From: Thermoplasmata archaeon
Lineage (GTDB): Archaea > Thermoplasmatota > Thermoplasmata > Halarchaeoplasmatales > Halarchaeoplasmataceae
Length of the DNA: 64,000 nt
Assembly (NCBI GenBank): GCA_003552585.1
Contig: PUNK01000057.1
Span: 720 to 64,719, forward strand
Reading direction: 5' to 3'
Part shown: in pieces, positions 8,125-64,000 of the stretch
How positions within the stretch are numbered: position 1 is the stretch's first letter
Layout of the letters: every line of letters begins with the position of its first letter
Translations under genes and position numbers: made by a program
The notes under the pieces: model-generated
The model's database searches: none
Told to the model about the DNA's origin: nothing
Seen by the model: the letters and a program-made list of their open reading frames with translations, nothing else

Positions 8125-9258
8125 ATGGGATTCGTCATGGAATCTATAATTAATGAAGCTCTAAAAAAGCATAAGAAGGAAGAAAAAATTGGGAAAGAAG
8201 ACAAACGAATAGAGAGTATGGAATCTGCACCAGAAGATGAAGAACTTAGAAAACTTGTAGATACACTAGAAGTTAAGATAAGGATTTTCGGTTGTGGAGG
8301 AGGAGGATCCAACACCATCGATCGTCTGACAGAGGAAGGTATCACTGGCGCGGAGTTGATAGCCTGTAATACCGATGCCAATCATCTTCTTCATACACAT
8401 GCTCAAAAGAAGGTTCTCATCGGAAAGAACCAGACAAGAGGATTGGGCGCTGGAGCTAGACCTGAGGTAGGAGAACAGTCTGCACTGGAGGCTAAAGAGG
8501 AACTTCAGAGATACGTGGACGGTTCAGATATTGTATTTATCACCGCAGGAATGGGCGGTGGCACAGGGACAGGTTGTGCTCCCGTGATAGCAGATATGGC
8601 CAAAGAAGAAGGTGCCTTGGTGATGTCAATAGTTACCATGCCGTTCGAAGGCGAAGGCCGGGAAAGGATGAACAACGCTCAACGAGGGCTGATGAAACTG
8701 GAAAGACATTGTGATACAACGGTTGTCATACCCAATGATAGACTTCTTGAATTGGTACCGAACTTACCTTTGGAAGCTGCCTTCAAGGTCGCAGATGAGA
8801 TACTGATGGAATCGATAAAAGGCATCACTGAAATCATCACCAAACCTGGATTGGTGAACCTAGACTACAATGACGTAAGAACGGTTATGGATGAGGGTGG
8901 TTTGGCAATGATAGGAATCGGCGATTCTGATGATCCGAATACCAGAGTAGAGGATGCAGTGTCTCAGGCAATAAATTCACCACTGTTAGGTGATATCGAT
9001 GTTAGCGAAGCCAAGGGAGCACTCATCAGAGTCATAGGTGGACAGGATATGACGGTAACCGAGGCACAAAGGGCAGCAGATCTAGTTAATGAAAAGATAT
9101 CGAAAGAAGCTAGAATAATCTGGGGTTGCAATGTTGAAGATGACATGCAAAATACGATCAAGATCATGTTAGTGATCACTAACGTGCATTCGGATACTGA
9201 AGAATTCGCAAAGATGTCTATGGGTTCTCTGGGTGACGATATAGACTTAGTCGGATGA
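8125..9258 (+). CDS. ftsZ: cell division GTPase FtsZ
   Basis: GGGGSN, GGGTGTG tubulin signature and T7 loop; ~45-aa charged N-terminal extension. Confidence 0.9.
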
Positions 9259-9307
9259 TGATACCACCAAAAATATAACACCCTTCTTTCCTTTTCTTTA
9301 CATATCT

Positions 9308-9904
9308 ATGATAGCTAAAGGAGCAGGTATCCCGCTTTCACTTGTTATATTATCCAGTATATGTGCAATGCTGCTCTATCTGATGTATGGTGGATTTTTT
9401 GTCTATCTCTCTTTGGCTTTTGTTTTGTTGACACTTTTTTTCATAATATTTTTTAGAGATCCTGAGAGAACAAATGCTGAAGGGATATTATCTCCAGCTG
9501 ATGGTCGGGTAGACGAATTAAAGAAAAAAAGGATTGAGGTATTCATGAATATAACGGATGTTCATGTAAATCGTTCCCCGGTATCAGGTAAGATCGCCAG
9601 TATTAAGTATATTCCTGGCAAGCATAGACCTGCTTTTTCCAGTTCAACGGGTTCAAATGAACGTCTGAAGATTAAGATAGAATCGGAAGATAAAGAGATC
9701 GTATTGACCCAAGTGGCGGGAGTATTCGCAAGACGTATCGTACCCTATGTAAAAGAAGGAGATTTTGTACAAAAGGGTGATAGGATAGGTATGATCCGTT
9801 TTGGCTCTAGGGTGATCTTGGAGTTTTCGCTTGATGTAGACTTTTCTGTTGAAAGAGGTCAAAAAGTCAAAGCTGCTGAAACATCTTTGGGGGTATGGAA
9901 GTGA
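9308..9904 (+). CDS. psd: archaetidylserine (phosphatidylserine) decarboxylase proenzyme
   Basis: FGS self-cleavage motif (MIRFGSRV) and N-terminal TM segment; operon with pssA. Confidence 0.75.
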   Translation: MIAKGAGIPLSLVILSSICAMLLYLMYGGFFVYLSLAFVLLTLFFIIFFRDPERTNAEGILSPADGRVDELKKKRIEVFMNITDVHVNRSPVSGKIASIKYIPGKHRPAFSSSTGSNERLKIKIESEDKEIVLTQVAGVFARRIVPYVKEGDFVQKGDRIGMIRFGSRVILEFSLDVDFSVERGQKVKAAETSLGVWK

Positions 9905-48219: not shown

Positions 48220-48396
48220 ATGAGACGGGAATTGATGGAGATACTGCGTTGTCCAGAGTGCAAAGGAGAACTCGAATTAACTGTGGAAGAGGAGATGGAG
48301 GAAATAGAGAAGGGAGAGTTGTATTGTGATAAATGTGGTATAGTTTATCCCATAGAAGAAGGGATTCCTAACATGCTTAAGGAGTCTCAAAGGTAA
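48220..48396 (+). CDS. Trm112-like small zinc-ribbon protein (methyltransferase activator family), 58 aa
   Basis: MRRELMEILRCPECKGELEL...LYCDKCGIVYPIEEGIPNML matches the Trm112/UPF0434 signature; absent from the ORF track. Confidence 0.6.
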   Translation: MRRELMEILRCPECKGELELTVEEEMEEIEKGELYCDKCGIVYPIEEGIPNMLKESQR

Positions 48397-48890
48397 TCTC
48401 TCTGTATTTCCACCACCTCTGTACTGTTCTTTGCTCTACTGTACCTTTCCAAAGGTTCTTTATTGATCTCTAGAAATTTTTCACCCCATCTAAAGTTGGT
48501 CATGAGTGCTCTTGCTTCTTCCTTCTCACCTAGTATGTATAAAGAAGCCGAAAGAGCCTCGGCGGTGGTTAGGCGTAAAGGCTTTCCAAAATTTACTGGA
48601 TTGGTCGCTAATATATAAGGTAAAGCTCTCCCGTTCTTAGAAGAAGGTATTTTAGGTAAAGGATCAGACCAGGTGCAATCTACCGCTCTGATACCGCCCT
48701 TTTCAACTATAGTTTTGTCTTCTGGAGAGAGAGCTTTTTCTGCAAAAGGGGTTAGACATACTCCGTCGGAAATCAATTCTCTCTTTTTCAACAACCTTTT
48801 GGCCTTTCCTTTCTCAACCAATTTATTAGCAGTGCATTTCTTAGGATCGCACTCCTTATACATGTATATGTAGAGCTCCATTCGATGCAT
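48387..48890 (-). CDS. tsr3: 16S rRNA aminocarboxypropyltransferase Tsr3 (DUF367)
   Basis: CDPKKCTANKL motif and TDD-domain-like remainder. Confidence 0.75.
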   Translation of the reverse strand: MHRMELYIYMYKECDPKKCTANKLVEKGKAKRLLKKRELISDGVCLTPFAEKALSPEDKTIVEKGGIRAVDCTWSDPLPKIPSSKNGRALPYILATNPVNFGKPLRLTTAEALSASLYILGEKEEARALMTNFRWGEKFLEINKEPLERYSRAKNSTEVVEIQRDYL

Positions 48891-48977
48891 GATAGAGCTG
48901 AAAGATTATAAATAACTTACCAGAGCTGTGTGTTTTTGAAGGAAAAATATAATTAATAAATTACCTATCTTGTAATA

Positions 48978-49036
48978 GCCCGATGATGAAGAATCCAAAT
49001 CTGATCTCATGATGAGTGATGGGCAGTCTGATGGGC
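48978..49036 (+). ncRNA. C/D-box sRNA (2'-O-methylation guide)
   Basis: terminal stem GCCC/GGGC; C box ATGATGA; 11-nt guide; D' CTGA; 4-nt spacer; C' ATGATGA; 12-nt guide; D box CTGA. Confidence 0.7.
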
Positions 49037-49055
49037 ATTAAAGGTTGTTGAAACC

Positions 49056-49661
49056 ATGGTAACCGGATTTGATGTATTACACAGCAACACACCGTTGCAG
49101 AAACACTGGTTAAAAAGAGTTATAGCCTACGTCATAGACCTTTTATTTTCCTCATTTGTGGTCTATGTTATCATGATGGCCTTGGGTTTGTTAATTCCTA
49201 ACATGATCATCTACTTCTTCCCGGTCGCAGGTATGGTACAGGTGTTCTACTCTGCGGTATTTGAATATTACAAAAGGCAAACACTGGGAAAGATTATACT
49301 AGACCTGCAGGTGGAGCCCCTAAAAGCCTCACTGGAACTCAATGATTGTCTACTAAGGAATATAAGCAAAGTGCATGGGGTTTTAGTCCTTTTAGACACC
49401 CTTGTCGGTTTAGCTACTGAAGGAGACCCTAGGCAGAGATACACTGATCGTATCGCTTACACTACGGTAAGAGGTGCTGTCGAACCTCATCATTTCGACC
49501 AGTTCTTGATGGGACACAGGTACGAAAAAAAAGAGGATACCAGAGATAAGACAAGTCAGTTGGAAAAACCTGAGAAGAGATCGTGCAGAGAATGCGGCGG
49601 AAATTTAGAAGAGATAGATTTTGGACAGTCTCGATGCACAGAATGCGGTAGGATACAGTAG
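49056..49661 (+). CDS. RDD-family membrane protein with C-terminal zinc ribbon
   Basis: WLKRVIAYVIDLLF RDD pattern; CRECGG...CTECG. Confidence 0.55.
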   Translation: MVTGFDVLHSNTPLQKHWLKRVIAYVIDLLFSSFVVYVIMMALGLLIPNMIIYFFPVAGMVQVFYSAVFEYYKRQTLGKIILDLQVEPLKASLELNDCLLRNISKVHGVLVLLDTLVGLATEGDPRQRYTDRIAYTTVRGAVEPHHFDQFLMGHRYEKKEDTRDKTSQLEKPEKRSCRECGGNLEEIDFGQSRCTECGRIQ

Positions 49662-49667
49662 GTTCTT

Positions 49668-50963
49668 ATGTACATTTCAATAGATGATACGGATTCTAAG
49701 GATGGTATGTGCACCACATATCTAGCGACCGAACTGATCAAGGAGTTCAATGATCTATATCTGGTGGATCACCCAAGACTCGTGCGTTTAAATCCAAACG
49801 TACCTTGGAAAACGCGTGGGAACGGAGCAATTGTCCTTCATCTTGGTCAGGGAGGCAGAAAAAAAAGGAAGATAGGATATATCGATGAAGAGATCTATCT
49901 TTATGAAGGCGATAGTACATTTTTAAACGAAGCTTTAGAGCGAGCTACAGCAATCGTAGAAAAGTGGGCATGTGACTCTGAAGGAACGAATCCTGGCATC
50001 GTGATATCAAACCAAAGACCAGGGATCGAACTGTACAAAAAAGCTGTAAAAGATGTTGTTGAACTTACAGAGGTAATGGATATTTTAGATGGGGGAGAAT
50101 ACTCTTATAAAGGATATAAAAACAAAAGAGGTTTGATAGGTGCTACTTCTGCTCTATCTTGGGAACCTGATGACCATACATATGAACTGTTAACTTACAG
50201 AGAGGATGCGAGGTGGGGCTCTGAAAGAGATCTTAACGATGAGGATGTAAAAAGATTCGACATCGAAACATTATACACTTTTGATAGTTATGACCATGAA
50301 GAAAACATCCAGGCGATCGCCCCAAATTCTCCCTGTCCCGTTCTTTACGGAGTTAGAGGAGAAGAACCGTCAGAACTAATGAAAGCTTTGTCCATGATAG
50401 GTGGTGAACGAGTTGAGAGATGGTTGTTGTTTCTTACCAATCAGGCAACGGATGATCATGTTCAAAAACAGGTGATCGGTCGATTGAGACCATGGACCTC
50501 GTGTGATATAATTGGTGAAATTTCTCGTTCTCCATGGACCATAGAAGGAGGACACGTGTTTTTTGATGTCGATTACAACGGAAATACGGTAACCGCAGCG
50601 GCCTACGAGCCGACCAAAGGATTCAGAGACGTGGTAAAAAAACTGACCGATGGTGATAAAGTTCGAGTGATAGGCGGGGTGCGAAAAGACCCGATTACTG
50701 TCAATATTGAAAAAATCGAAATACTCGAATTGGCAGAGAAGAAGATAAAAAAAAGTAACCCAAAGTGTCCTGATTGTGGAAAGAGGATGTCTTCGATGGG
50801 AAAGGACGCTGGATATCGCTGTAAGAGATGCAGGATCAAAGCGGATGAAGACGAAGCAGAAATAGTTACGGTTGATAGGGATCTAGAGCAAAAATATTAT
50901 GAGACCCCTGTTGTGGCAAGGAGGCATCTTTCTAAACCGTTAAAGAGGGTTGAAAAGTTGTGA
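49668..50963 (+). CDS. tiaS: tRNA(Ile2) 2-agmatinylcytidine synthetase
   Basis: MYISIDDTDSKDGMCTTY TiaS N-terminal signature; C-terminal Zn ribbon CPDCG...CKRC. Confidence 0.85.
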   Translation: MYISIDDTDSKDGMCTTYLATELIKEFNDLYLVDHPRLVRLNPNVPWKTRGNGAIVLHLGQGGRKKRKIGYIDEEIYLYEGDSTFLNEALERATAIVEKWACDSEGTNPGIVISNQRPGIELYKKAVKDVVELTEVMDILDGGEYSYKGYKNKRGLIGATSALSWEPDDHTYELLTYREDARWGSERDLNDEDVKRFDIETLYTFDSYDHEENIQAIAPNSPCPVLYGVRGEEPSELMKALSMIGGERVERWLLFLTNQATDDHVQKQVIGRLRPWTSCDIIGEISRSPWTIEGGHVFFDVDYNGNTVTAAAYEPTKGFRDVVKKLTDGDKVRVIGGVRKDPITVNIEKIEILELAEKKIKKSNPKCPDCGKRMSSMGKDAGYRCKRCRIKADEDEAEIVTVDRDLEQKYYETPVVARRHLSKPLKRVEKL

Positions 50964-51277: not shown

Positions 51278-52666
51278 TTATCCCGGATAATACTTCTCGA
51301 TCCATTTCTCTTCGATTCTCTTGAGTTCCCTATTTGGTATGGTAGTTAACAGTTCCCACGCTAAGTCAAGGGTTTCATCTATTGTTCTATCTTCGTCTTC
51401 CCCCTGGGCTATGAACCTCTCTTCGAATTGGTCTGCAAATTCTAGATAAGTTCTATCTCTTTCACTTAAAGCCTCTTCACCTACCACAGCAACCAGATCT
51501 CTCAATTCAAGTCCCTCGGCGTAGGTTGCGTAGAGCTGATTGCTCACGTCCATATGATCCTCCCTCGTCCTTTCTTTTCCGATCCCCTGCTGCATAAGGC
51601 GTGAAAGACTTCCGCCTGGGGTTATCGGTGGCCGTATACCCTTTCTGTGTAATTCTCTGGAAAATACTATCTGACCTTCGGTGATATACCCTGTTAGATC
51701 GGGTATAGGATGGGTGATATCATCATCGGGCATGCTCAAGATAGGGAGCATGGTTATCGAACCATCTCTACCTCGTATCCTTCCAGCTCTTTCATATATG
51801 CTTGCAAGATCGGTGTACATATATCCTGGATAACCTCTTCTTCCAGGGACCTCTTCTCTGGCCGCGGCTATTTCACGTAATGCCTCACAGTAATTCGTGA
51901 TATCCGTTAGTATCACCAGTACCTGCATCCCTTCTTCAAAGGCTAGATATTCTGCTGCAGTTAGGGCCATACGAGGAATAATGATCCTCTCAATAGCTGG
52001 ATCGTTAGCTAGGTTCAGGAACAGTACCGCTCGCTCAAGAGCCCCCGTTCTTTCGAAATCGTTGATGAAAAAGTTTGCTTCTTCCGAGGTGATACCCATA
52101 GCACAAAACACCACGGCGAACTCTTCTTCCTCTCCAAGGACTTTTGCTTGGCGGGCTATCTGAGCAGCTACACTGTTATGTGGTAGACCGCTGGCACTGA
52201 ACATGGGTAACTTTTGTCCTCTGACCAACGTGAACATACCATCTATCGTTGATATTCCTGTCTGAATAAATTCCCTTGGAAATTCTCTTGCTGATGGATT
52301 GATCGGATCTCCGTTTATGTTCCGCCTTTCTTCAGGTATGATATCCGGACTTCCATCTATCGGTTCACCGACCCCGTTGAAAACCCTGCCTAAAAGTTCT
52401 CGGGAAACCCCGAATTTCATCACTTCACCGGTGAACTGTACTGAAGTATCCTTTGTATCCAATCCACGGGTACCTGCAAAAACCTGTAAAACAGCTCTAT
52501 TGGAATCAACCTCTAATACCTGCCCAATTCTTTCTTCACCACTAGGTAGGCGAACCTTAGCGATCTCATTGAAAGCGACATCAGTCACGTCCTCGACTAC
52601 CATTAGAGGACCTGAGACCTCTACCACGTTCTTGTATTCTGTTCTCTTGGATACTTCACTTTCCAT
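51278..52666 (-). CDS. atpB: A-type ATP synthase subunit B (start ATG at 52666 with GGAGG SD; ORF track TTG/GTG start at 52693)
   Basis: full-length similarity to A/V-ATPase B; [11 protein letters not shown] start. Confidence 0.9.
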
Positions 52667-52667
52667 C

Positions 52668-55061
52668 TTAATCATCCTCCATAAACGATTCAAATCCCTC
52701 GTTCATCTTCATCTCAATGTGATCGAATCTTTCTTCCCATTTATCTGAAGGAACGTTAGACATCCTACTTAGATCTTCAACAACATCCATCGCCACTATA
52801 TCATCTACTGAAACGCCCTTTTCCACTGCATCCATCCCTCTTTCGTAGAACTCCATCATGATTTCGATCATCCTGAACTGCTTTTCAGGGTCGCAGTAGG
52901 TATCCACATCGTGGAAGGCGTTCTGCTGCAGGAAGTCTTCTCTGATGACACGTGCAGCTTGAAGGGCAAATCTATCGCTTTTAGGAAGAGCATCCGGGCC
53001 GACGAGTTGAACGATCTCCTGAAGCTCCGACTCCTTTTCCAGCAGACGCATGCTCTCTCTCCTGAGTTCATGCCATTTTTCATTAATATTCTCGTTCCAC
53101 CATCCTTTAACCGAATCTAGATATAGAGAATAAGAGCGAAGCCAGTTGACTGCTGGGAAATGACGTTTGTTTCTTAATTCTACATCCAAGGCCCAGAAAA
53201 CCTGCACGATCCTTAGGGTGTTCTGGGTCACTGGTTCTGAGAAATCTCCACCTGACGGACTGACTGCACCGATGACTGAAATCGAACCATCTTCTCCATT
53301 CAAAAGCTCACATATACCTGCTCTTTCGTAAAAAGAGGCTAAAGATGATGCTAGATATGCGGGATAACCTTCCTCACCCGGCATCTCTTCTAATCTACCT
53401 GAAATCTCTCTTAATGCCTCTGCCCATCTAGATGTTGAATCAGCCATAAGTGCAACGTTGTATCCCATATCTCTATAATACTCTGCCAACGTGATCCCAG
53501 AGTACACAGATGCTTCTCTTGCAGCTACGGGCATATTACTTGTATTTGCAATTAAAACTGTACGCTTCATAAGCGGTTCCCCAGTACGAGGGTCCTCCAA
53601 CTCAGGAAAATCCCGTAGTACTTCAGTCATCTCGTTCCCTCTTTCACCACAACCGACGTAGACGACGATATCCGCATCGCTCCACTTAGCTAATTGGTGC
53701 TGGATCACCGTATTATGTAATATCATGGGTGCATTACCGCCTACAAAATTGTGAGTTCCAGGAACGGTAAGATCGTATACATCTTTTGTTTCATCTTTCA
53801 ATTCTACAGATGTAACAGGATCTGGGAGGAAATGATCTAAGTGGTTATGCTCATCTCTTGAAATTCCCACCCTTTCTTCACTCTGTTCATCTCCTTTTGT
53901 TTTATTGATCGCATTCTTCAAAGTGTCTTCTCTAGGTGCTAATAGGGTGTCTCCACTTTGTAGCTTACCAGCCGGTTGCTCTTTGATTTGCTGATCTGAT
54001 GTTAGGACGAAGAGTTTGTGAACCGGTGTCACTTCCACTTCCCGTCCCGAATCGGTTGTGACCACTACAGTACTATCTGTTTTACCTTTATAGATGCATG
54101 TCGCATGCTTTTTAATTATCTTTCCATCATCCATCGAAAGGATGTCCAAAGGATCGTTTAATTCTATCAACTCTTCGTGATCATCAAGGTTTGAATCAAT
54201 TCTCTTGATGCCTTGATCTTTGTACTCTTCGAAAATTTCTTCGATCGCTTTTTTTGTGCCATCGGCTAAGATCACCGGAGTATCTCCGGTTATACATTTG
54301 CCGGTCCCGAACCCCCCGGGTATGGCGGCGGTACCGCCTTTAGCGAGTGGAAAGAATGTATCCAGGACACGCTGTCCGGTGATAAGTAGTTCACCCGGTG
54401 CTTTCTTTCTCCCGATCGGACGTCTTATCCTTACTGGCCACCGCTGTTTCATCTTGATCTCTTCTTCACCGGTGGAAGTTTTTACACGAGCGATAGTATC
54501 TGTTATTGTGTATTCTCCTTCATTGACTATCTCTTCGATTTTCCCGCTGATACCATGAGGCACCATAACTTTGTGTTCTACAACTTTTGTTTCAGGCACA
54601 GTCCCGATGATATCACCTGCTGAAACTTCATCACCCTCTTTAACATCAGGAATAAACTTCCAGTGCTTTTCCTCGTCTAATGGTGGTACATCAACACCAC
54701 GAAGTATGAAATCTCCTGCCTCTGATTTTATGGCCTCCAAAGGACGTTGGATACCGTCATATATCTGCTGTATGAGTCCTGGACCGAGTTCTGCGGACAA
54801 GGGGTCTCCGGTTCGTTTTACGGGTTCTCCAGGCTTCAATCCACCCGTCTCTTCGTAAACTTGGATTGTAGCTACATCTCTCTCTAAGCCTATTATCTCT
54901 CCGATCAGACCAGCTTCACCTACCTCTACTACTTCATACATCTCTGCCCCTTTTAGGTTTCCAGCCTCTACTACAGGTCCAGCGATCCTGTTTATCTCTC
55001 CGACTTGTTCTTTCTTAGGCTTAGAGATACGCTCTATCCGCTTTTCAACATCTTCTTCCAT
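52668..55061 (-). CDS. atpA: A-type ATP synthase catalytic subunit A, interrupted by an in-frame mini-intein
   Basis: 797 aa vs ~585 expected; P-loop GGFGTGK|C...HN|T split. Confidence 0.9.
53712..54296 (-). mobile_element. 195-aa mini-intein in the atpA P-loop (no homing endonuclease domain)
   Basis: starts [13 protein letters not shown] (block A), TPVH (block B), ends [23 protein letters not shown] (blocks F/G) followed by +1 Thr of GKT. Confidence 0.8.
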
Positions 55062-55062
55062 A

Positions 55063-55395
55063 TCAACTGTCCTCCTTTAATGTGATATCTATTCCAACTG
55101 CACGTTTTATTTTCTCTTCAAGTGGGTCTTCTTTTCCTTTTATCGGTCCTTTAGCATCCGGCAGCTCTACTATTATCGGGTAAAGTTCCTTACCCTCGAT
55201 GAGTTTGTTAAGTTCGAAACGTATAGACTCGGCAACGTCCTCCGAGATGAGAACAACAGCAACGTCACCAGACTCAACAAATTCCGTCAGAAGTCTGAGG
55301 GTTAAGTGCTCGTCCTCGTGAACGTGGGATTCATTAACACCTGCAAGTGAAAAACCTTCTGCGAAATACTCTCCACCTATAGCGACTATCTTCAT
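55063..55395 (-). CDS. atpF: A-type ATP synthase subunit F
   Basis: [20 protein letters not shown] typical subunit F. Confidence 0.85.
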
Positions 55396-56528
55396 ACTCT
55401 ATCCTCCATCACTAACAACGCTTCGATGCTCTCAGACGGCATCTTTTCCCTTAAACCTCGGCTCAGTATATTGAGGTTCCTAAGCTCTACTTCCTTACCC
55501 ACCAAAAAGCGAAGTAGGGGACCCACACTGAGCACGTTCTGACTCATCACTTCCGAGGCCATCTGGATCATCTTTTTATCCAGGTATTTTTCTATCTCAA
55601 ACGGTCCCATGGTAGCAGCGTCACGTCTGATCTCCGCGTAGGAAGTGCCTTCCAATTCAACCAGTGCTTCTTCTAAGCCCGATGATTCAACCATACTTTC
55701 AAGCTTCCATCGTTCCAGCTCTCTGCCCGATGGGAGTAGAGCTTTCTTTAACTGCTCCTTATCCACCCCTTCTCTGAGACCCCTTATCAATATCTTCAAG
55801 TTCTTAACGTCAACGTACCTGCCGAAGAAGTACTTGACCGGTGGTCGTTCTTCGGATTCTACATTTTTAACTGATTTTTGGATACGCTGGTAAACGTATC
55901 TATCGAAGGACACTTCCAAAGAGTACATGTCTTCAGTAGGATCTTCACCCTGCAGCGGCTCTTCGAAACCCGCCTCCTTCAAAATGTCGATGACCTCCTG
56001 GAGATCACGAGCGTTCACCAAACTATCGATCACTTTCTCGTCCACCCTCCTTACGGGGATCAATTTTTCACTCATATCTTCTCTAGAATCTCCAGTCATT
56101 TTGGACTTCAGCGCACGTTTTGCCATCCTTACGTCGAACCGAAGTAGCCATGCACCGGCGAACTCCTTGGCGGAAAGGGGACAGTTTCTGTACGCCCTCC
56201 TCATGAAGGACATGGTTTCACTTTCCAGCTCCCTTTCCAGTTCGTTCTGGTCCAGGGTAGCTTCTTTGGAAAGGTCATATCCTCTATCCTCCAGTTCCTG
56301 ATATACTTCATTAAGATTGTTTCCTTCGACCAAAGGTGAGAGTACGCTGTTACTCAAAAAGGGATTGCCGATGGCTCGGTATTTGGCGTTAGGATAAGTA
56401 AAACTAGCTATCGATAGTAACACTTTGAAATAACTCATAACCAGCAGTACGACTATAAGTAATGAGCCGCCGACTATGACCAACACGAAGTTGGTGATTC
56501 CTAGGGAATCGATAACCCCTTCTAACAC
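55392..56528 (-). CDS. atpC: A-type ATP synthase subunit C (d-like), with an unusual ~30-aa hydrophobic N-terminal extension if the operon-abutting start is used
   Basis: YPNAKYRAIG...; size and position in operon. Confidence 0.75.
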   Translation of the reverse strand: MLEGVIDSLGITNFVLVIVGGSLLIVVLLVMSYFKVLLSIASFTYPNAKYRAIGNPFLSNSVLSPLVEGNNLNEVYQELEDRGYDLSKEATLDQNELERELESETMSFMRRAYRNCPLSAKEFAGAWLLRFDVRMAKRALKSKMTGDSREDMSEKLIPVRRVDEKVIDSLVNARDLQEVIDILKEAGFEEPLQGEDPTEDMYSLEVSFDRYVYQRIQKSVKNVESEERPPVKYFFGRYVDVKNLKILIRGLREGVDKEQLKKALLPSGRELERWKLESMVESSGLEEALVELEGTSYAEIRRDAATMGPFEIEKYLDKKMIQMASEVMSQNVLSVGPLLRFLVGKEVELRNLNILSRGLREKMPSESIEALLVMEDRV

Positions 56529-57110
56529 TCAGATTTCCTCCTTAAACATCATCTCAGATATCTCTTTTCGGATATCTTTTTTCATACGTTCTAGATTGGA
56601 TTCGAAGGTAAGGTCTATGAACGAGCCGCTTTCAGAACGTGCTTTGATGCCCCCCACCGATATAAGATCGGCTTTTACTTTAACCGAAGGAGCGATCTTT
56701 TTAGCCATCTCACTCACCAGCTCTTTACTCTCTTCATTACACGATACCGTGATATCCTTTCCCAATACTTTAACGCATTTGCCTATGGCTTGTCGGATAT
56801 AAACTTTATAATCCTCCGCCTGTAGAGAACCAAGTTTTTTCAAAGCCTCTTGGAATATCTCATCTATCATCTCCTCCCTAACTTCAAGCTCACGCTTACG
56901 GGCGTCCAGCTTAGCTTGGGAGCGGATGCGGTTCTTCAACGTCCTCAGCTCTCTGTCGCTCTCTTTTTTGAGTTCGTCGAGTTTTCTCTCCTTCTCGGAG
57001 ATTATCTTCTCCTTTTCAGACTCAGCCTTATCACGGGCTCTCTTGGCGATGATCTTCGCCTTCCGTTTTGCGTCCGTTCTTATCCGCTTAACCAATTTAT
57101 CTACCGACAT
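56529..57110 (-). CDS. atpE: A-type ATP synthase subunit E
   Basis: 193 aa, charged N-terminal helix, position in operon. Confidence 0.8.
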   Translation of the reverse strand: MSVDKLVKRIRTDAKRKAKIIAKRARDKAESEKEKIISEKERKLDELKKESDRELRTLKNRIRSQAKLDARKRELEVREEMIDEIFQEALKKLGSLQAEDYKVYIRQAIGKCVKVLGKDITVSCNEESKELVSEMAKKIAPSVKVKADLISVGGIKARSESGSFIDLTFESNLERMKKDIRKEISEMMFKEEI

Positions 57111-57119
57111 CTTAAGCCC

Positions 57120-60100
57120 TCACATAAACCCAAAGAACACTATTATAAATATCGCTATCAACAGACCGAAGATAGCAAAGGTCTCCGACATAACGCTGAA
57201 TATCATGCCCTTGCCGAATACCTCCTCTCGTTTTGTCACAGCGGCTATGGCGGAACCCGAGGTTATACCCTGACCGACTCCGGATACACCGGCTATACCT
57301 ATGGCAAGCCCGGCGCCGACGGCGGCCACACCCATGCCTACGGTAAGATCAGTATCTCCACCCAGCATGCCGCTGAATACCATGAGCAGTATTCCGATCA
57401 AAAGCCCGTATATAGCCTGAGTTTCGGGAAGTACGGAGAATACCATACCCCTTCCGAACATCTTCTCGTTCTCCGTCACCGTTGCAACTCCACTGGCTGC
57501 GGCGATACCTTGGCCTATACCTGAAAGACCTGCGATGCCAACCGCTAAACCTGCACCTACGCCAACCATCCCAATTGCTAGGTCCAATGGAGGTCCTTCG
57601 CCCAATAAACCGCTGAATATCATAAGTAATATGGCGATCAACAGCCCGTATATAGCCTGAGTTTCGGGAAGTACGGAGAACACCATGCCCCTGCCGAACA
57701 ATTCTTCTTTTTCAGCCACACAACCTATACCGCTGGCTGCGGCGATACCCTGGCCTATACCGGATAGGCCGGCGATACCTACGGCTAAACCTGCACCTAT
57801 AGCTGTCAACCCTATAGCGTAGCCTGATTCACCAAGGACGACTTCAGGGAAGTCTCCTGCTAATAACCCGCTGAATACCAGTAATAGTATGGCTATCAGT
57901 AAACCATAGATGGCCTGGGTTTCCGGTAAAACGGAGAATACCATTCCTTTGCCGAACATCTTTTCATCCTCGGCCACTGTTGCGATACCACCGGAAGCGG
58001 CGATACCTTGGCCGATACCTGAAAGGCCTGCGATGCCCACGGCTAACCCGGCTCCCATACCTACTATACCCATGGATGCTTCCATGGTAACAGCATCTCC
58101 CAGCATACCTGAGAAAACCATCAACAGTATGGCCAACAGTAGTCCGTATATCGCCTGTGTTTCCGGAAGCACCGAGAATACCATACCCTTTCCGAATAGT
58201 TCCTCTTTTTCAGCCACCGTCGTAACACTGCTGGCTGCGGCGATACCTTGACCTATACTGGACAACCCTGCTAGACCTACAGCGAATCCGGCACCAACGG
58301 CCATCATGCCTATGGCTAGACCGGAATCCCCTGCCATTATGGGGTCGCCCTCACCTGCCAGTAAACCTGTAAATATCATCAAAAGTATACCTACGAGAAG
58401 TGCATAGATCGCCTGGGTTTGAGGTAGTGCCTGGAATACCAATGATTTACCGAATTTGTCCGGATCCTCGGTCACTATACCCGCACCCGCCGCACCTACT
58501 ATACCCACCCCTATGCCGGCTCCCATACCGGCTATACCTACGGCTAAACCTGCTCCCACACCGACCAATCCCAAAGATGATTCGATTGAAGTCGGGTCTC
58601 CCAACATGCCTGTGAAAATTAGTAGTAATATAGCAATAAGTAATCCGAATATAGCGAAGGTCTCTGACATCACACTAAAGATCATTCCTTTTCCGAATAC
58701 TTCACTTCGTTTTGCAACAGCGGGTATAGATGCCCCCGAAGTTATCCCCTGACCCACACCCGAGATACCAGCAATGCCTACTGCTAAACCAGCCCCTATC
58801 GCTATCATGCCCAAACCGTGACCTTGATCACCCAACAACGCAGTAGGATAATCCCCTGTCAACAGGCCTGAGAAGACCATCAAAAGGATAGCTATGAGTA
58901 AACCGTATATCGCCTGTGTCTCCGGAAGCACTGAAAAAACCATGCTCTTCCCGAACATCTTTTCGTCGTCGGTAACGGTGGCTATACCACTTGCCGCTGC
59001 GATGCCCTGGCCGATACCGGATAGCCCTGCTATCCCCACGGATAATCCTGCACCGACTCCAACCAGACCTAGGCCTATGTGTAGTGGTTCTCCATCACCC
59101 GCCAATAAACCGCTGAATATCATCAATAATATGGCGATCAACAAACCGTATATCGCCTGGGTTTCCGGAAGTACCGAGAACACCATACCTTTACCGAATA
59201 TCTCTTCATCTTCGGCCACACAGCTTATACCGCTGGCCGCAGCGATGCCTTGGCCGATACCGGATAGTCCTGCGATGCCCACCGCCAAGCCGGCACCGAT
59301 AGCTATCAAGCCCAAGGCGTAACCGGAGTCTCCAGCCATTATAGATGCCGGGTCTCCGGCTAGAAGGCCGGTGAACACCATCAGTAATATAGCTATGAGT
59401 AAACCGTAGATGGCTTGTGTTTCCGGTAGCACGGAGAATACCATGCCCTTACCGAACAGCTCCTCCTTCTCGGCTACTGAAGATATACCGCTTCCCGCTG
59501 CGACTCCTTGGCCTATGCCTGAAAGCCCGGCCACTCCGACCGCGATGCCGGCGCCTATACCTACCATGCCTAGGCCTAATCCGTATTCTCCCAGCATGAA
59601 GGCGTGAATATCTCCCCCTAGGAGACCAGTGAACACCATCAGCAATATTGCTATCAATAAACCGTATATTGCCTGTGTTTCCGGAAGTACGGAGAATACC
59701 ATACCTTTACCGAACAATTCTTCCTTCTCTGAATAAGCGGCTACACTACCGGAGGCGGCTATACCCTGCCCGACAGCGGATAGGCCAGCGATCCCCACCG
59801 CCAAACCGATACCCAACGAGATTATACCTATGGGTAGGGGAACGTAAGCTCCGTCACCGAGAACTCCGGTGAATAGTAACAGTAAAACGGCTATGAGTAA
59901 ACCGTATATAGCTTGGGTTTGAGGTAGTGCCTGGAACACCAAACATTTACCGAATTTATCCGGACTCTCGGCAACGGTACCCGCACCCGCCGCACCGGTT
60001 ATACCGACACCGATGCCTGCACCCATCCCTGCGATCCCAACGGCAAGCCCTGCCCCTATGGCAGTCAAATAAGTTCCACGCTCGTCCCTTTCAACGATTA

Positions 60101-60482
60101 TTTCGATCGAATGTGAATAAGATACATCATCATCCGTTATCTCAAGGGTAACCGTGTAATTCCCCAGCTCGTATTCACGTGTTACATTTTCGGCTATAAG
60201 CTCTTCGATATCCATCGGTCCTAGTTCATATCCCTCTCCATCTCCAAAGTCCCATGAGGCATTAAATGGACCATCAGGATATTCATCCACATCCAAATGG
60301 ATACCGAATTTTATTTCCACTGGCTCATCTTCATCAACGGTGTATATCCTGGCCCTTTCTTCCACAACATCTCCATCAACCATTATCTTTAGCTCGTTTT
60401 CTCCCTCTGCTATGACTGAAGGAAGAAGGGCAGATACGATGATAAGTAAGATGAAAACTATGATCAACCTGTGCCCCTTCAT
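57120..60482 (-). CDS. atpK: A-type ATP synthase proteolipid subunit K as a single 12-hairpin fusion, preceded by a signal peptide and PKD-like domain
   Basis: aa 1-25 signal peptide; aa ~30-135 PKD motif (WDFGDG...YTVTLEITDDD); 12 repeats of ...GxGxAxGxAGxxxxGQGIAA...FGKGMVFSVLPETQAIYGLLIAILL. Confidence 0.85.
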   Translation of the reverse strand: MKGHRLIIVFILLIIVSALLPSVIAEGENELKIMVDGDVVEERARIYTVDEDEPVEIKFGIHLDVDEYPDGPFNASWDFGDGEGYELGPMDIEELIAENVTREYELGNYTVTLEITDDDVSYSHSIEIIVERDERGTYLTAIGAGLAVGIAGMGAGIGVGITGAAGAGTVAESPDKFGKCLVFQALPQTQAIYGLLIAVLLLLFTGVLGDGAYVPLPIGIISLGIGLAVGIAGLSAVGQGIAASGSVAAYSEKEELFGKGMVFSVLPETQAIYGLLIAILLMVFTGLLGGDIHAFMLGEYGLGLGMVGIGAGIAVGVAGLSGIGQGVAAGSGISSVAEKEELFGKGMVFSVLPETQAIYGLLIAILLMVFTGLLAGDPASIMAGDSGYALGLIAIGAGLAVGIAGLSGIGQGIAAASGISCVAEDEEIFGKGMVFSVLPETQAIYGLLIAILLMIFSGLLAGDGEPLHIGLGLVGVGAGLSVGIAGLSGIGQGIAAASGIATVTDDEKMFGKSMVFSVLPETQAIYGLLIAILLMVFSGLLTGDYPTALLGDQGHGLGMIAIGAGLAVGIAGISGVGQGITSGASIPAVAKRSEVFGKGMIFSVMSETFAIFGLLIAILLLIFTGMLGDPTSIESSLGLVGVGAGLAVGIAGMGAGIGVGIVGAAGAGIVTEDPDKFGKSLVFQALPQTQAIYALLVGILLMIFTGLLAGEGDPIMAGDSGLAIGMMAVGAGFAVGLAGLSSIGQGIAAASSVTTVAEKEELFGKGMVFSVLPETQAIYGLLLAILLMVFSGMLGDAVTMEASMGIVGMGAGLAVGIAGLSGIGQGIAASGGIATVAEDEKMFGKGMVFSVLPETQAIYGLLIAILLLVFSGLLAGDFPEVVLGESGYAIGLTAIGAGLAVGIAGLSGIGQGIAAASGIGCVAEKEELFGRGMVFSVLPETQAIYGLLIAILLMIFSGLLGEGPPLDLAIGMVGVGAGLAVGIAGLSGIGQGIAAASGVATVTENEKMFGRGMVFSVLPETQAIYGLLIGILLMVFSGMLGGDTDLTVGMGVAAVGAGLAIGIAGVSGVGQGITSGSAIAAVTKREEVFGKGMIFSVMSETFAIFGLLIAIFIIVFFGFM
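57123..60062 (-). repeat. 12 tandem ~240-260-bp coding repeats (c-subunit hairpins) organised as a duplicated 6-hairpin super-repeat
   Basis: recurrent nucleotide blocks such as gtttccggaagtacggagaataccat at ~240-bp intervals; hairpins 1/7 and 6/12 are pairwise most similar. Confidence 0.8.
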
Positions 60483-62614
60483 TCACTCCCCTCCTTGCTC
60501 GTGGTGAATCTTCTTTCTGGTTTGAAAGGTTTGAATTCCGTACCACCGCCTTCATAGAAGTAACCGAAGAACTCTACGTACTGCAGCCTGAGAGAATGTA
60601 CGAAGGAACCCAAGGCCTGAAGTGAAGCATTGATGATATGTCCTCCAACCAGAACTACAAGGGAAAGTATATAGAAGGGATATACGGGATCGATAAATCC
60701 CAGTCCGCCGATCACCATAATAGAAATTCCAGCACCCATTATTTTTTTATCTTTTGAGAGTGTGGAACGTATGAGTAGAACGGAACCAATAGCTACCACT
60801 ACCAAAGCCATCATCGTTCCCATCGACCCGTCTGCTACAAGATATGCAAGCACGTTGACCGTTAAAGCGATCCCTGCCGTGGCAAGGCCGAGGGCAAGAA
60901 TCCTGGCAAAGGAGAGAAAATCACCCAAAAAACCCGTTAATGCGAAGAATGAAAGTCCTTTAGCCCTGACCACCAGAAGGCCAAGACCAACAACGCTCAT
61001 TATAGCAGCAATGGTGTAAACTGTTCCTGTGAAATCGTACCAGCCAAAGAGCATACCCGATAGGAGTATGAAGCCACCCGGCTGCAGAAGCCACCATGAA
61101 ACGTTCTCGAGTAAGACATGCCTGTAATTCTTCCGTCTTATATGTTGTATCAGGGATAGGACGAGACCTATGTTTATGTATGCCAGCCCTATCAGTAGAG
61201 ATATTATCAAGAGAATCAGCGGTCCATCACCCTCTAGGGTATCAAGAAGAAGTGGTGGATCAAGACCGAAGCGGCCCAAGAGATTAAGATATTCTTCTCT
61301 ATTTGGGCCGAGATATCCTCCCTGGAGAATCCCGAAGATGAAAGTTGATAATCCTGCCGCCAACAGTATCAAAGAAAAGTCCCTTGTACCCTTCTCTATC
61401 TTACCTATGCCGTAATATAAAACTAGAGAAACCGCTATTATCAAACCACCATAAACCGCATCGCCCAACATCAGACCAAAAAAGATAACGAAGGCAGGTG
61501 CAATTATAAGAGTTGGATCGACCTCGTCATATCTTGGAGGTGCGAACATCCTCGTGAGCAGTTCGAAGGGTTTCAAAAGCTTAGGATTATCTAAAGATAC
61601 AGGCACATAATCAGGGTCTCGAGGTTCCTCAGAAACCAATAAACCGTATCCTCTGGACTGCTTTTTTACCTCTCTCTCTACCTGTGGCACCAGGTCTTCA
61701 GGAGCCCACCCTTTGATGATCGCGGTCGTATCGGTCCGTCCGAACTGCTGGTAGGCTTCCATTTTGTTACGGAATATCTCAAGCTCTTCTTCAAGCACAA
61801 AAAAATCGAGTTGATGCTCTTTTTTTTGTTCCACCAATGAGGTGAAGAGATCCTCTTCCTCCTTCTTCATCTCCCTTATTCGCTTATCTAATTTGTCTAG
61901 TACGTCGGAAGGGATACCTTTTAATTGACCGAAGTCAAAGATTTTTACATTTGTCTCCCTCAGCACCATATCCAATCTTTTACGATCTCTTATATAAGCT
62001 CCAGCGATGGCGATGTATTCCTTTTCTTTTCTCCTTTGAAGAATAAGGTGGGAAGTATCTATTTCTGATAGTTTTCTCTTTAGTAGAGTAGTATTTTGTG
62101 TCTTTCCTACACGATATACCGTGTATGGTGAATCACCGATATAGCTGAGATCGATATCTATATCGATCATCTGTTGAACACTTCTGCGGATAGATTCAAA
62201 CTCTTCGATCTTTTCTCTCTTTTTGTTGAGTTCTCTGCTCAGTTTAAGAATATTTTTTCCCACGGAATCCATGAGATCATCTATCTCTTCTTTTAGTGCT
62301 GAAAAATCTTTCATTTCTCTTTTTACAGGTTCGATCTCCTTTGGAAATATGAGATCTTTGATGCCTTCTTCCTTGACTTCTATACTGCTAAAAACGTCTT
62401 GTACGGAGGTAAGTTTCATCTCATACTCGGTACAATCGGATAGATTTTTGTGTATAGAACCATCGTCTATTAAACTGCTCAAATCAGTATCCCTTTCTAC
62501 GTTAGATATCTCTATTTCACCCATGGAATGAAGACCTTCTACAACTTCGTCCAAGTAAGAATCGTGTACGATTATAGTGACGTCCTTCATCCTCTTGGGG
62601 AAGAGTATGTTCAT
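60479..62614 (-). CDS. atpI: A-type ATP synthase subunit I (a-subunit)
   Basis: 711 aa, N-terminal coiled cytoplasmic domain, C-terminal polytopic domain with ARILALGLA (conserved Arg). Confidence 0.85.
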   Translation of the reverse strand: MNILFPKRMKDVTIIVHDSYLDEVVEGLHSMGEIEISNVERDTDLSSLIDDGSIHKNLSDCTEYEMKLTSVQDVFSSIEVKEEGIKDLIFPKEIEPVKREMKDFSALKEEIDDLMDSVGKNILKLSRELNKKREKIEEFESIRRSVQQMIDIDIDLSYIGDSPYTVYRVGKTQNTTLLKRKLSEIDTSHLILQRRKEKEYIAIAGAYIRDRKRLDMVLRETNVKIFDFGQLKGIPSDVLDKLDKRIREMKKEEEDLFTSLVEQKKEHQLDFFVLEEELEIFRNKMEAYQQFGRTDTTAIIKGWAPEDLVPQVEREVKKQSRGYGLLVSEEPRDPDYVPVSLDNPKLLKPFELLTRMFAPPRYDEVDPTLIIAPAFVIFFGLMLGDAVYGGLIIAVSLVLYYGIGKIEKGTRDFSLILLAAGLSTFIFGILQGGYLGPNREEYLNLLGRFGLDPPLLLDTLEGDGPLILLIISLLIGLAYINIGLVLSLIQHIRRKNYRHVLLENVSWWLLQPGGFILLSGMLFGWYDFTGTVYTIAAIMSVVGLGLLVVRAKGLSFFALTGFLGDFLSFARILALGLATAGIALTVNVLAYLVADGSMGTMMALVVVAIGSVLLIRSTLSKDKKIMGAGISIMVIGGLGFIDPVYPFYILSLVVLVGGHIINASLQALGSFVHSLRLQYVEFFGYFYEGGGTEFKPFKPERRFTTSKEGSE

Positions 62615-62925
62615 ACCTCCTGAAGACGTGAGATCACGTGTTCGACAGCCTCATCCTTATGTTCATCAGTGAGCTCTTTAAGTCTTTTAGCTCTTTCTTC
62701 TCCCTCCTTACGGATCTCTTCAGCTTGCTCCTCCGCCCTTTTTTTTACTTCTTTTCTTTCCTGCTCAAGATTTTTTTTAAATGAAAATATCTCGTCTTCT
62801 TTATCCTGCTCAGCCTCTTTTTTCGTACGTTTTATCAGATCCTCACCCTTTCTTCCAGCCCTCTCGATCATCTTGAGAGCTTTCTTTTCCGTCTCTTTGA
62901 CGATTTCTATTTCTTCGATAGGCAT
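62611..62925 (-). CDS. atpH: A-type ATP synthase subunit H (ORF track extends to a TTG at 62961)
   Basis: ~104 aa, highly charged helical, first gene of the operon. Confidence 0.6.
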   Translation of the reverse strand: MPIEEIEIVKETEKKALKMIERAGRKGEDLIKRTKKEAEQDKEDEIFSFKKNLEQERKEVKKRAEEQAEEIRKEGEERAKRLKELTDEHKDEAVEHVISRLQEV

Positions 62926-63326
62926 GATGGAGCACCCCGTGGCAGGTTTGATACGTTTCAAGTTGTGATTAGTAGTTTAGATATAAGGATTTTGGTAATC
63001 GAACTAATAAATCGAAACAGGATTTTTATTGCACCCGCCGACCGTAGTGTGGAACTAGCTCCACTTTATTCTCGGGCAAAGCCCTGCGGATAGGGAGGCA
63101 ATATACCCACAGCCTTGGCCGTGGGTGCGGGAGCGAAATTGACTTCCCATCAAAAAAGTGTTGTAAATATTACCATATTCTGCCTATAGAAGGCTGACTC
63201 GAACGACATCAGCAGGAAGATAACACCAGTATCGCAAAAGGGCATGGGATATTAGTCGAGGGAGAAACCTTTTTTACACTCCTAGTTCATGGGATAAACG
63301 GAGGAGAATAATTGCCTAAATCGAAT

Positions 63327-64000
63327 GTGCGGCGGGCACGAAAGGATAAGGAGGAAAGTAGGTCGAAGTCTGTTTCCATCGTCATCGCCTCTCTGATGAT
63401 TGTAGCGATAATGCTGGGCGGTGCGATGTTGTCCGATGCTAACTACAGTTCCACCGCATCTGATTACAGGACGAGGAGTGCCGAAGGGTGGAGCGAGGAT
63501 GTGAGGATATCGTACAATTTCACCGCTGACGAATCTCCCTCAATTGCCGTTGATGGTGAAGTTGTACATATAGTCTGGAGGAGTACATGGTCTGGAGGCC
63601 AAATATTTTACACCAGATCAACTAATGCGGGAGAAACCTGGGACGAACCGGTGATGATAGGACCTTTGGAGTATTATTGTAGGAATCCAGATATCGCTGT
63701 TAGCGGTAATAATGTACACGTGGTATGGAACAACAATAATGCCTCTGCCCAAGAGATCAGGTATCTGAGGTCTGTTGACGGTGGTAACACATGGCTCCCC
63801 GAGCGGATGATCTCCAGCGACGACGGGAATAACTCGCAGGCCCCGAAGATCGCTGTGAGCGAGGACGGGATGGACGTTCATGTTGTCTGGGTGGATGAGA
63901 GGCATGCGGACGATCCATTCCAACCCACCCTCGAACTATATTACAACCGCAGTCTTGACGGAGGCGTGACATGGGAGGGGGAAGTACGGCTTACAGAGGC
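63327..64000 (+). CDS. BNR/Asp-box repeat protein (sialidase-like beta-propeller), N-terminal signal anchor, 3'-truncated by window end; GTG start 63327 or ATG ~63396
   Basis: my translation shows a positively charged N-terminus then hydrophobic segment, and repeated Asp-boxes (NAGETW, DGGNTW, DGGVTW); GC content well above the window average. Confidence 0.55.
   Translation, partial: MRRARKDKEESRSKSVSIVIASLMIVAIMLGGAMLSDANYSSTASDYRTRSAEGWSEDVRISYNFTADESPSIAVDGEVVHIVWRSTWSGGQIFYTRSTNAGETWDEPVMIGPLEYYCRNPDIAVSGNNVHVVWNNNNASAQEIRYLRSVDGGNTWLPERMISSDDGNNSQAPKIAVSEDGMDVHVVWVDERHADDPFQPTLELYYNRSLDGGVTWEGEVRLTE

Follow-up and report, generated by a model that had tools for sequence, protein, structure and literature searches.

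Genes at the Locus

The 64-kb stretch of DNA analysed here (hereafter the window) contains a putative box C/D sRNA gene of 59 nt at 48978..49036 on the plus strand, in the gap between tsr3 and a gene for an RDD-family protein. The tsr3 gene (48387..48863, minus strand; Pfam Ribo_biogen_C, 2.4e-44), which encodes a member of the 16S rRNA aminocarboxypropyl transferase family, is divergent from the sRNA. Its mechanical open reading frame extends to 48890, and the form on record is 158 aa long. A trm112-like zinc-ribbon gene (48220..48396, plus strand; Pfam Trm112p, 9e-15) is convergent with tsr3. On the other side of the sRNA, the gene for the RDD-family membrane protein (49056..49661, plus strand; Pfam RDD, 4e-12) starts 19 nt past the end of the sRNA. 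It is followed by tiaS, the gene for tRNA-Ile2 agmatidine synthetase (49668..50963, plus strand; Pfam TiaS_TCKD, TiaS_FLD, and Zn_ribbon_TiaS), whose start is 6 nt past the RDD stop codon. A ThyX gene, also confirmed with Pfam, is found upstream, and the gene table of an identical Logan contig places a V-type ATPase operon downstream.

The same Logan contig (L001) maps a gene for a KsgA/Dim1-type RrnaAD methyltransferase about 7 kb upstream of the sRNA. The RNA-modification genes of this region, namely those for the KsgA/Dim1-type RrnaAD protein and the trm112-like protein, tsr3, the sRNA gene, and tiaS, lie within ~9 kb (~41.9-51.0 kb of the window). No tRNA gene is present in the 64-kb window, and no rRNA gene is present either in the window or in the related loci examined.

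Architecture of the Box C/D Element

The direct read of the plus strand at 48978-49036 is GCCC G ATGATGA AGAATCCAAAT CTGA TCTC ATGATGA GTGATGGGCAGT CTGA T GGGC. The 5' half of the terminal stem, GCCCG (48978..48982), pairs with the 3' half, UGGGC (49032..49036). The C box AUGAUGA (48983..48989) is followed by the 11-nt D' guide AGAAUCCAAAU (48990..49000), whose conserved core GAAUCCAAA occupies 48991-48999, and by the D' box CUGA (49001..49004). The D'-C' spacer UCUC (49005..49008), 4 nt long, corresponds to the loop of an internal k-loop. The second half of the element consists of the C' box AUGAUGA (49009..49015), the 12-nt D guide GUGAUGGGCAGU (49016..49027) with the conserved core UGAUGGGCA at 49017-49025, and the D box CUGA (49028..49031). 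The base five positions upstream of the D' box is C48996, and the base five positions upstream of the D box is G49023. Thus, the element has C and D boxes near its ends, D' and C' boxes flanking a short loop, two guides of ~12 nt, and a terminal helix that is maintained among relatives.

This layout had been proposed letter by letter in a preliminary description made from the sequence alone, and it is reproduced exactly. The C and C' boxes, the D' and D boxes, the guides of 11 and 12 nt, and the short C'/D' spacer are all in place. The terminal stem of 4 bp, GCCC/GGGC, is also as described there and is lengthened by one G.U pair. The surrounding group of RNA-modification genes (trm112-like, tsr3, and tiaS) and the RDD gene, named in the same description, agree with the Pfam assignments above.

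A regular-expression search of both strands, with strict and relaxed patterns, found the C/D'/C'/D order at this single site in the 64-kb window. The same arrangement was seen in none of 200 dinucleotide-preserving shuffles. The predicted fold of the sRNA is the terminal stem alone, and its stability is not unusual (z = -0.55). Such an unremarkable fold energy is expected, because the structure of C/D sRNAs depends on bound protein.

Orthologues in Halophilic Thermoplasmata

The same RNA gene was found between the RDD gene and tsr3, on the RDD strand, in six further versions. The ingroup consists of seven distinct versions, from the window, L004, L007 (with L008 and L009), L036, L038, L052, and L054, which derive from divergent halophilic Thermoplasmata (Ca. 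Halarchaeoplasmatales and relatives) as genomes or metagenome contigs. All six relatives keep V-ATPase, TiaS, RDD, sRNA gap, tsr3, and Trm112 in this order, and the trm112-tsr3-sRNA-RDD-tiaS core is syntenic in every close relative. The Tsr3 proteins of the relatives are 53-62% identical to that of the window. The closest Tsr3 relatives carry the names Thermoplasmatota or Ca. Saliniplasma, and Ca. Saliniplasma is assigned in the NCBI taxonomy to Ca. Halarchaeoplasmatales, class Thermoplasmata. Ca. Halarchaeoplasmatales is a halophilic order known solely from metagenome-assembled genomes (PMC11332174).

The C box (AUGAUGA), the D' box, and the D box are identical in all seven versions, and the C' box is RUGAUGA in all seven. 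The guides are 11 and 12 nt long in all orthologues. With guide positions counted upstream from the box, positions 2-10 of the D' guide (GAAUCCAAA) and positions 3-11 of the D guide (UGAUGGGCA) are invariant in 7/7 versions, while positions 1 and 11 of the D' guide and positions 1, 2, and 12 of the D guide vary. In total, 18 guide-core positions are invariant, and all five guide-edge positions are variable. No base of the D'-C' spacer is conserved, and its length is 3-4 nt in all versions but L052, which has 25 nt. The intergenic DNA around the sRNA is poorly alignable among the versions.

The terminal stem is 4-6 bp long in every version, and its sequence changes on both sides. It is GCCCG/UGGGC in the window, GCCCG/CGGGC in L052, GCUC/GAGC in L007, CACCC/GGGUG in L038, and GCCAC/GUGGU in the outgroup locus L048 described below. 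These compensatory changes represent three versions inside the clade, and the outgroup adds a fourth. From these comparisons, the conservation pattern is that of a guide RNA, with boxes that bind protein and guide cores that pair with fixed targets. A protein-coding region or a merely AT-rich region would not be expected to show it.

These data bear on the simplest alternative, that the boxes are chance motifs without function in an AT-rich intergenic region. The motifs are short and the fold energy is not unusual, although such an energy is normal for C/D sRNAs. The absence of the arrangement from the 200 shuffles does not fit a chance origin, and the conservation of the element in seven syntenic loci with covarying stems contradicts it. 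A chance origin is therefore extremely improbable.

The version in L052 (5166-5249, minus strand; GCA_046497075.1, Ca. Saliniplasma sp.) has both guides unchanged. Its 25-nt D'-C' loop, CTCACAGCCTAACGGCTTTCTACGT, holds a small hairpin, AGCC-TAAC-GGCT. In L036 (GCA_048622455.1), the RDD gene is called at 9229-9900 on the minus strand with a product of 223 aa, compared with 175-203 aa in the other loci. The 5' end of this call overruns the sRNA at 9899-9839. The ORF was probably called too long here and so masks the RNA gene.

The 9-mer TGATGGGCA is present twice in the window element, at 49017-49025 (the D guide core) and at 49029-49037 (TGA of the D box and the 3' stem). The repeat is also seen in L004 and L054, and it is absent from L007 and L038. 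It is probably a coincidence, or it may give the guide a second pairing partner in the 5' stem.

The covariance model of the family gives the window sRNA 87.6 bits. A search with this model of the window and 11 related loci revealed no further members. No family member was found with the model beside tsr3 in the Thermoplasmata loci L040, L041, L050, and L051.

A Homologue in a More Distant Lineage

An unannotated C/D sRNA was found in L048, a contig of a more distant Thermoplasmata lineage (JGI metagenome 3300022663), at 5384-5320 on the minus strand. It is divergent from an LMWPc-tsr3 gene pair. The Tsr3 of this contig is 53% identical to that of the window, and the gene order differs. The sRNA reads CCAC-C-GTGATGA-TGAACCCAGCT-CTGA-TCTG-ATGAAGA-GAGACGGGCGAG-CTGA-GTGG and scores 60.6 bits with the family model. 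It resembles the window sRNA in its divergent position relative to tsr3, in its architecture, and in guide sequence, with 14 of 23 positions shared by a count made by eye, GGGC and GAA.CCA among them. It differs from the window sRNA in the C' box, which is AUGAAGA instead of RUGAUGA, and in the lack of RDD-tiaS downstream.

By the rule for archaeal C/D sRNAs, methylation falls on the target nucleotide paired to the guide base five positions upstream of the box (PMC6009581). The D' guide of L048 pairs at 11/11 positions (10 Watson-Crick and 1 G.U) with the universal 23S rRNA sequence AGCUGGGUUUA (2577-2587 in E. coli). The 23S rRNAs of E. coli and Haloarcula have this sequence in identical form, and the pairing sets G2581 opposite guide position 5. 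The D guide of L048, aligned by hand, pairs at 10 positions (8 Watson-Crick and 2 G.U) with the archaeal consensus UUCGCCCGUU. This is the A-loop stem, 23 nt upstream of the D' site, and C2558 (E. coli numbering) is opposite position 5. An alternative for the D guide is a match of 8 Watson-Crick positions with 16S 1400-1407. As a pair, the two 23S sites fall within the dual-guide criteria of Lui et al. 2018 (PMC6009581). Both lie in helix 90-93 of 23S rRNA, a reported hotspot for archaeal guides. On these matches, the sRNA family looks to include at least one member resembling a conventional rRNA guide.

In the window clade, the guides depart from those of L048 at positions 2, 3, 7, and 11 of the D' guide and at positions 3, 8, and 11 of the D guide, listed apart from the edge positions that are variable within the clade. 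These guide changes abolish the perfect 23S matches seen in L048.

Putative Promoter and Transcription Unit

An archaeal promoter-like element is located upstream of the sRNA at 48941..48955 on the plus strand. It consists of a purine-rich, BRE-like GGAAAAA (48941-48947) and a TATA box, TATAATTA (48948-48955), which begins 30 nt ahead of the first sRNA base. The corresponding element GGAAAAATATAA, BRE-like plus TATA, could be aligned in five versions, 29-30 nt upstream of the first stem base. Its similarity to the archaeal promoter consensus suggests a promoter role, and its position places the predicted transcription start at ~48977-48978, where the RNA begins. Farther upstream, another AT-rich element is conserved in reverse orientation and probably serves tsr3.

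The RDD start, ATGGTNAC, is conserved, 19 nt past the sRNA in the window and up to 37 nt past it in the relatives. No TATA-like element or T-run is present between the sRNA and the RDD start in the window or in the relatives. Thus, the sRNA is probably the leader of an RDD-tiaS transcript. The simplest reading is that the sRNA, RDD, and tiaS would be transcribed together and that the sRNA, protected as an RNP, would be trimmed out; tiaS is presumed to belong to the same transcription unit as RDD. In archaea, C/D sRNA genes commonly lie <25 nt from an ORF, with the sRNA matured from a longer transcript (PMC7994747).

This arrangement also raises another reading, in which the element acts only in cis. 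L7Ae-binding sites in the 5' UTR of RDD-tiaS would regulate translation or stability, with no guide acting in trans. The location fits such a k-turn leader, with the element 19 nt upstream of the RDD start and no separate promoter or terminator between them. One study reports that L7Ae binds k-turns of archaeal mRNAs and regulates translation (PMC5539422), and in reporter tests, downstream expression was lowered by sRNA genes that overlap an ORF at its 5' end (PMC7994747). However, the conservation is not confined to the protein-binding motifs. Two 9-nt guide cores are invariant while the loop and the flanks drift, and a pure protein-binding leader would need neither of them. In addition, the outgroup sRNA in L048, which has no RDD gene downstream, keeps both the architecture and guides complementary to rRNA. 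A purely cis-acting role is highly unlikely. The leader and guide roles are not mutually exclusive.

The sequence at 48978-49036 is very probably the gene of a functional archaeal box C/D sRNA with two guides. It is identified as a guide RNA because the boxes and guide cores are invariant while the guide edges and spacer vary, the stem changes in a compensatory manner, and the promoter-like element is conserved. In the proposed mechanism, transcription would begin at ~48977-48978 from the BRE/TATA element and run on into RDD-tiaS. L7Ae would bind the C/D k-turn and the C'/D' k-loop, where Nop5 and fibrillarin would assemble, and nucleases would trim the protected sRNA from the leader. Each guide would then pair with ~9 nt of a target RNA, and fibrillarin would 2'-O-methylate the target nucleotide that faces guide base 5, counted upstream from the D' or D box.

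Predicted Targets

The preliminary description had also identified the element as an archaeal box C/D sRNA and predicted its targets. The identification is supported by the full architecture, the conservation pattern across relatives, and the upstream promoter-like element. As for the targets, conservation supports the cores UUUGGAUUC and UGCCCAUCA, but the full-length versions were too long. The guides of the window clade predict UUU[G]GAUUC and UG[C]CCAUCA as targets. In each, the bracketed nucleotide is expected to be methylated; it is the first G in 5'-UUUGGAUUC-3' and, in 5'-UGCCCAUCA-3', the first C.

Lui et al. (PMC6009581) ask of a guide an uninterrupted run of at least ~9 Watson-Crick pairs with rRNA or tRNA, with the nucleotide opposite guide base 5 at its centre. 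The references used for the comparison were heterologous: E. coli rRNA, Haloarcula marismortui rRNA (from a plasmid record), and the Rfam archaeal SSU and LSU consensus. No perfect target or target of 9 Watson-Crick pairs was found in the 16S, 23S, and 5S rRNAs of E. coli or H. marismortui, which are heterologous rRNAs, and no perfect target was found in the Rfam archaeal rRNA consensus read by eye. If differences were restricted to variable columns, hundreds of stretches fitted the target. The best heterologous matches are 7-8 bp long, and in them a conserved C faces the A that is invariant at position 3 in each guide. In the register of L048, the guides of the window clade form 7 pairs (5 Watson-Crick and 2 G.U) on 23S 2580-2586 and 8 pairs (6-7 Watson-Crick and 1-2 G.U) on 23S 2557-2564. 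Two look-alike sites are seen in 16S rRNA, 66 nt apart: 1336-1342, with 7 Watson-Crick pairs (Haloarcula), and 1401-1408, with 7 Watson-Crick pairs and 1 G.U pair.

Such imperfect matches could mean that the box C/D RNP carries guides that have lost their methylating role, or never had one in this clade, and works as an rRNA-folding chaperone through pairings of 7-8 bp. The sites would be either the ancestral ones at 23S C2558 and G2581 or the look-alike ones at 16S G1337 and C1402 (E. coli numbering). The pairing of the guides in the outgroup register with 23S 2580-2586 and 2557-2564, as well as with 16S 1336-1342 and 1401-1408, is consistent with this. Lui et al. 2018 (PMC6009581) described conserved dual-orphan families, and also weakened guides that possibly still aid folding. 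Two points argue against a chaperone. The positions that would be left unpaired, positions 2-3 of the D' guide and position 3 of the D guide, are invariant in 7/7 versions, while the truly unpaired edges vary. The combined pairing scores, 27-31 when calculated by hand, do not reach the cut-off of 32 applied by Lui et al. A non-methylating role is quite unlikely.

For methylation guides, the invariant positions have a different meaning. The truly unpaired positions drift and the positions where A faces C do not, and the real targets therefore probably carry U there. The sequence pattern argues that perfect 9-bp targets exist in the lineage's own RNAs. These targets are most likely in rRNA, because selection acts on both guides, as is typical where dual guides serve neighbouring rRNA sites, and because the outgroup guides match 23S helices 90-92.

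It is also conceivable, but unlikely, that the window clade has retargeted an ancestral 23S peptidyl-transferase/A-loop guide, of the kind that L048 still seems to have, to new, strictly conserved targets, either lineage-specific sites in the P-site region of the small subunit or a non-rRNA substrate, and that the linkage to tsr3, trm112, and tiaS is functional. The small-subunit candidates would be 16S G1337 and C1402 (E. coli numbering). Both adjoin nucleotides that are handled in eukaryotes by Trm112-dependent enzymes and Tsr3. If this retargeting took place, the sRNA-tsr3-trm112-tiaS linkage would represent a module that modifies the decoding centre and tRNA.

Several individual candidates were considered and rejected. 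The best E. coli match of the D guide is at 16S C1402 (ACCGCCCGUCAC). There, the A opposite C1400 is invariant, and the pairing gets poorer with the AA and AU that some versions have at the two positions beside the D box. No variant of the 16S 1400 region turned up in a metagenome scan. The C1402 site survives only as an 8-bp candidate. For the D' guide at 16S helix 31, 9 bp would require A959 to be U, and the archaeal consensus keeps UUAA. The neighbouring U966 is the substrate of Tsr3. A search of 185,579 species genomes for TGCGG..TTTGGATTCAACGCCGG gave one chance match, in a bacterial protein-coding region. No 16S sequence with the helix 31 16-mer was found in IMG/VR, and a protein search with the conceptual translation of the 16S 3' domain gave no spurious ORFs. 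Helix 35a of 23S rRNA (GAAAggCCAAUCuA) is a known methylation hotspot; for this candidate of the D guide, a metagenome scan for TGCCCATCA...AGCTGGTTC returned 0 matches. The near-match in a hairpin loop of 23S domain III (Haloarcula 1432) is no better than chance, and those in the hairpin GGGGUAACGGCCCACC of the 16S 5' domain (Haloarcula 242) and in 5S rRNA are at chance level.

Targets in tRNA anticodon loops were rejected by reasoning alone, as they are incompatible with U33, with the purine at 37, and with the known 2'-O-methylation positions. The sole tRNA in the related loci is tRNA-Asn in L004. As to neighbouring mRNAs as targets, exact matches within the window and the related loci are only the sRNA's own antisense strand and scattered chance 9-mers. 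A search of papers and supplements for the guide and target strings returned only siRNA matches or nothing.

Comparison with Known Box C/D RNAs

The window sRNA belongs to no curated Rfam family. At gathering thresholds, no Rfam family was matched anywhere in the 64-kb window. In a permissive scan of the 64 kb, the sRNA locus alone gave matches, which were to sR1 (30.2 bits, with a gathering score of 45), sR5 (27.9 and 40), and sR2 (27.5 and 42). A closer scan of the locus gave snoPyro_CD 23.0 bits against a gathering score of 45, and about twenty more C/D families produced end-to-end alignments, every one below threshold. Thus, the element has the C/D architecture but is not a member of the specific families RF01152 (sR1), RF01304 (sR5), RF01139 (sR2), and RF00095 (snoPyro_CD). 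Scores below gathering are expected, because the C/D families in Rfam are specific to their own guides.

The likeness to these Pyrococcus RNAs is in the length of ~55-60 nt, the order C, D', C', and D with RUGAUGA and CUGA motifs, the guides of ~12 nt, the short D'-C' loop, the short terminal stem, and the alignment to the models from end to end. The differences are in the guides, which are unrelated and leave the scores at 23-30 bits against gathering scores of 40-45, and in the hosts. The host of the window sRNA is a mesophilic or halophilic member of Thermoplasmata, whereas the Pyrococcus hosts are hyperthermophilic. In the case of the dual-orphan sR43 family of Pyrobaculum (Lui et al. 2018), the organisms' own rRNAs and tRNAs were searched, whereas the search here used heterologous rRNAs, and the orphan status of the window sRNA is provisional.

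Catalogues of box C/D guide RNAs are good for hyperthermophilic archaea and poor for mesophilic and halophilic lineages. The literature search found no C/D sRNA described for Thermoplasmatota or Ca. Halarchaeoplasmatales. The locus would add an unannotated RNA gene to the genomes of Halarchaeoplasmatales, and it predicts two ribose methylations in the RNAs of this lineage. It is a small, clear case of guide evolution, in which the boxes and the location are kept while both guides shift between clades. What is known of the mode of action of C/D RNAs is unchanged by it. The points of interest are the stable linkage to tsr3, trm112, and tiaS, and the conservation of both guides when the heterologous rRNAs have no perfect site.

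The V-ATPase Operon Downstream

The gene for the V-type ATPase A subunit, at ~52668-55061 on the minus strand of the window, contains an intein. The product is 797 aa long with an Intein_splicing domain, as annotated in the identical Logan contig. The A subunits of the relatives are longer (1128-1145 aa) and have a LAGLIDADG endonuclease domain; that of L036, with 601 aa, has no intein. The G+C content climbs from ~0.39-0.42 to 0.45-0.50 in 52001-64000 of the window, over and past the V-ATPase operon, with a peak at 56-60 kb.
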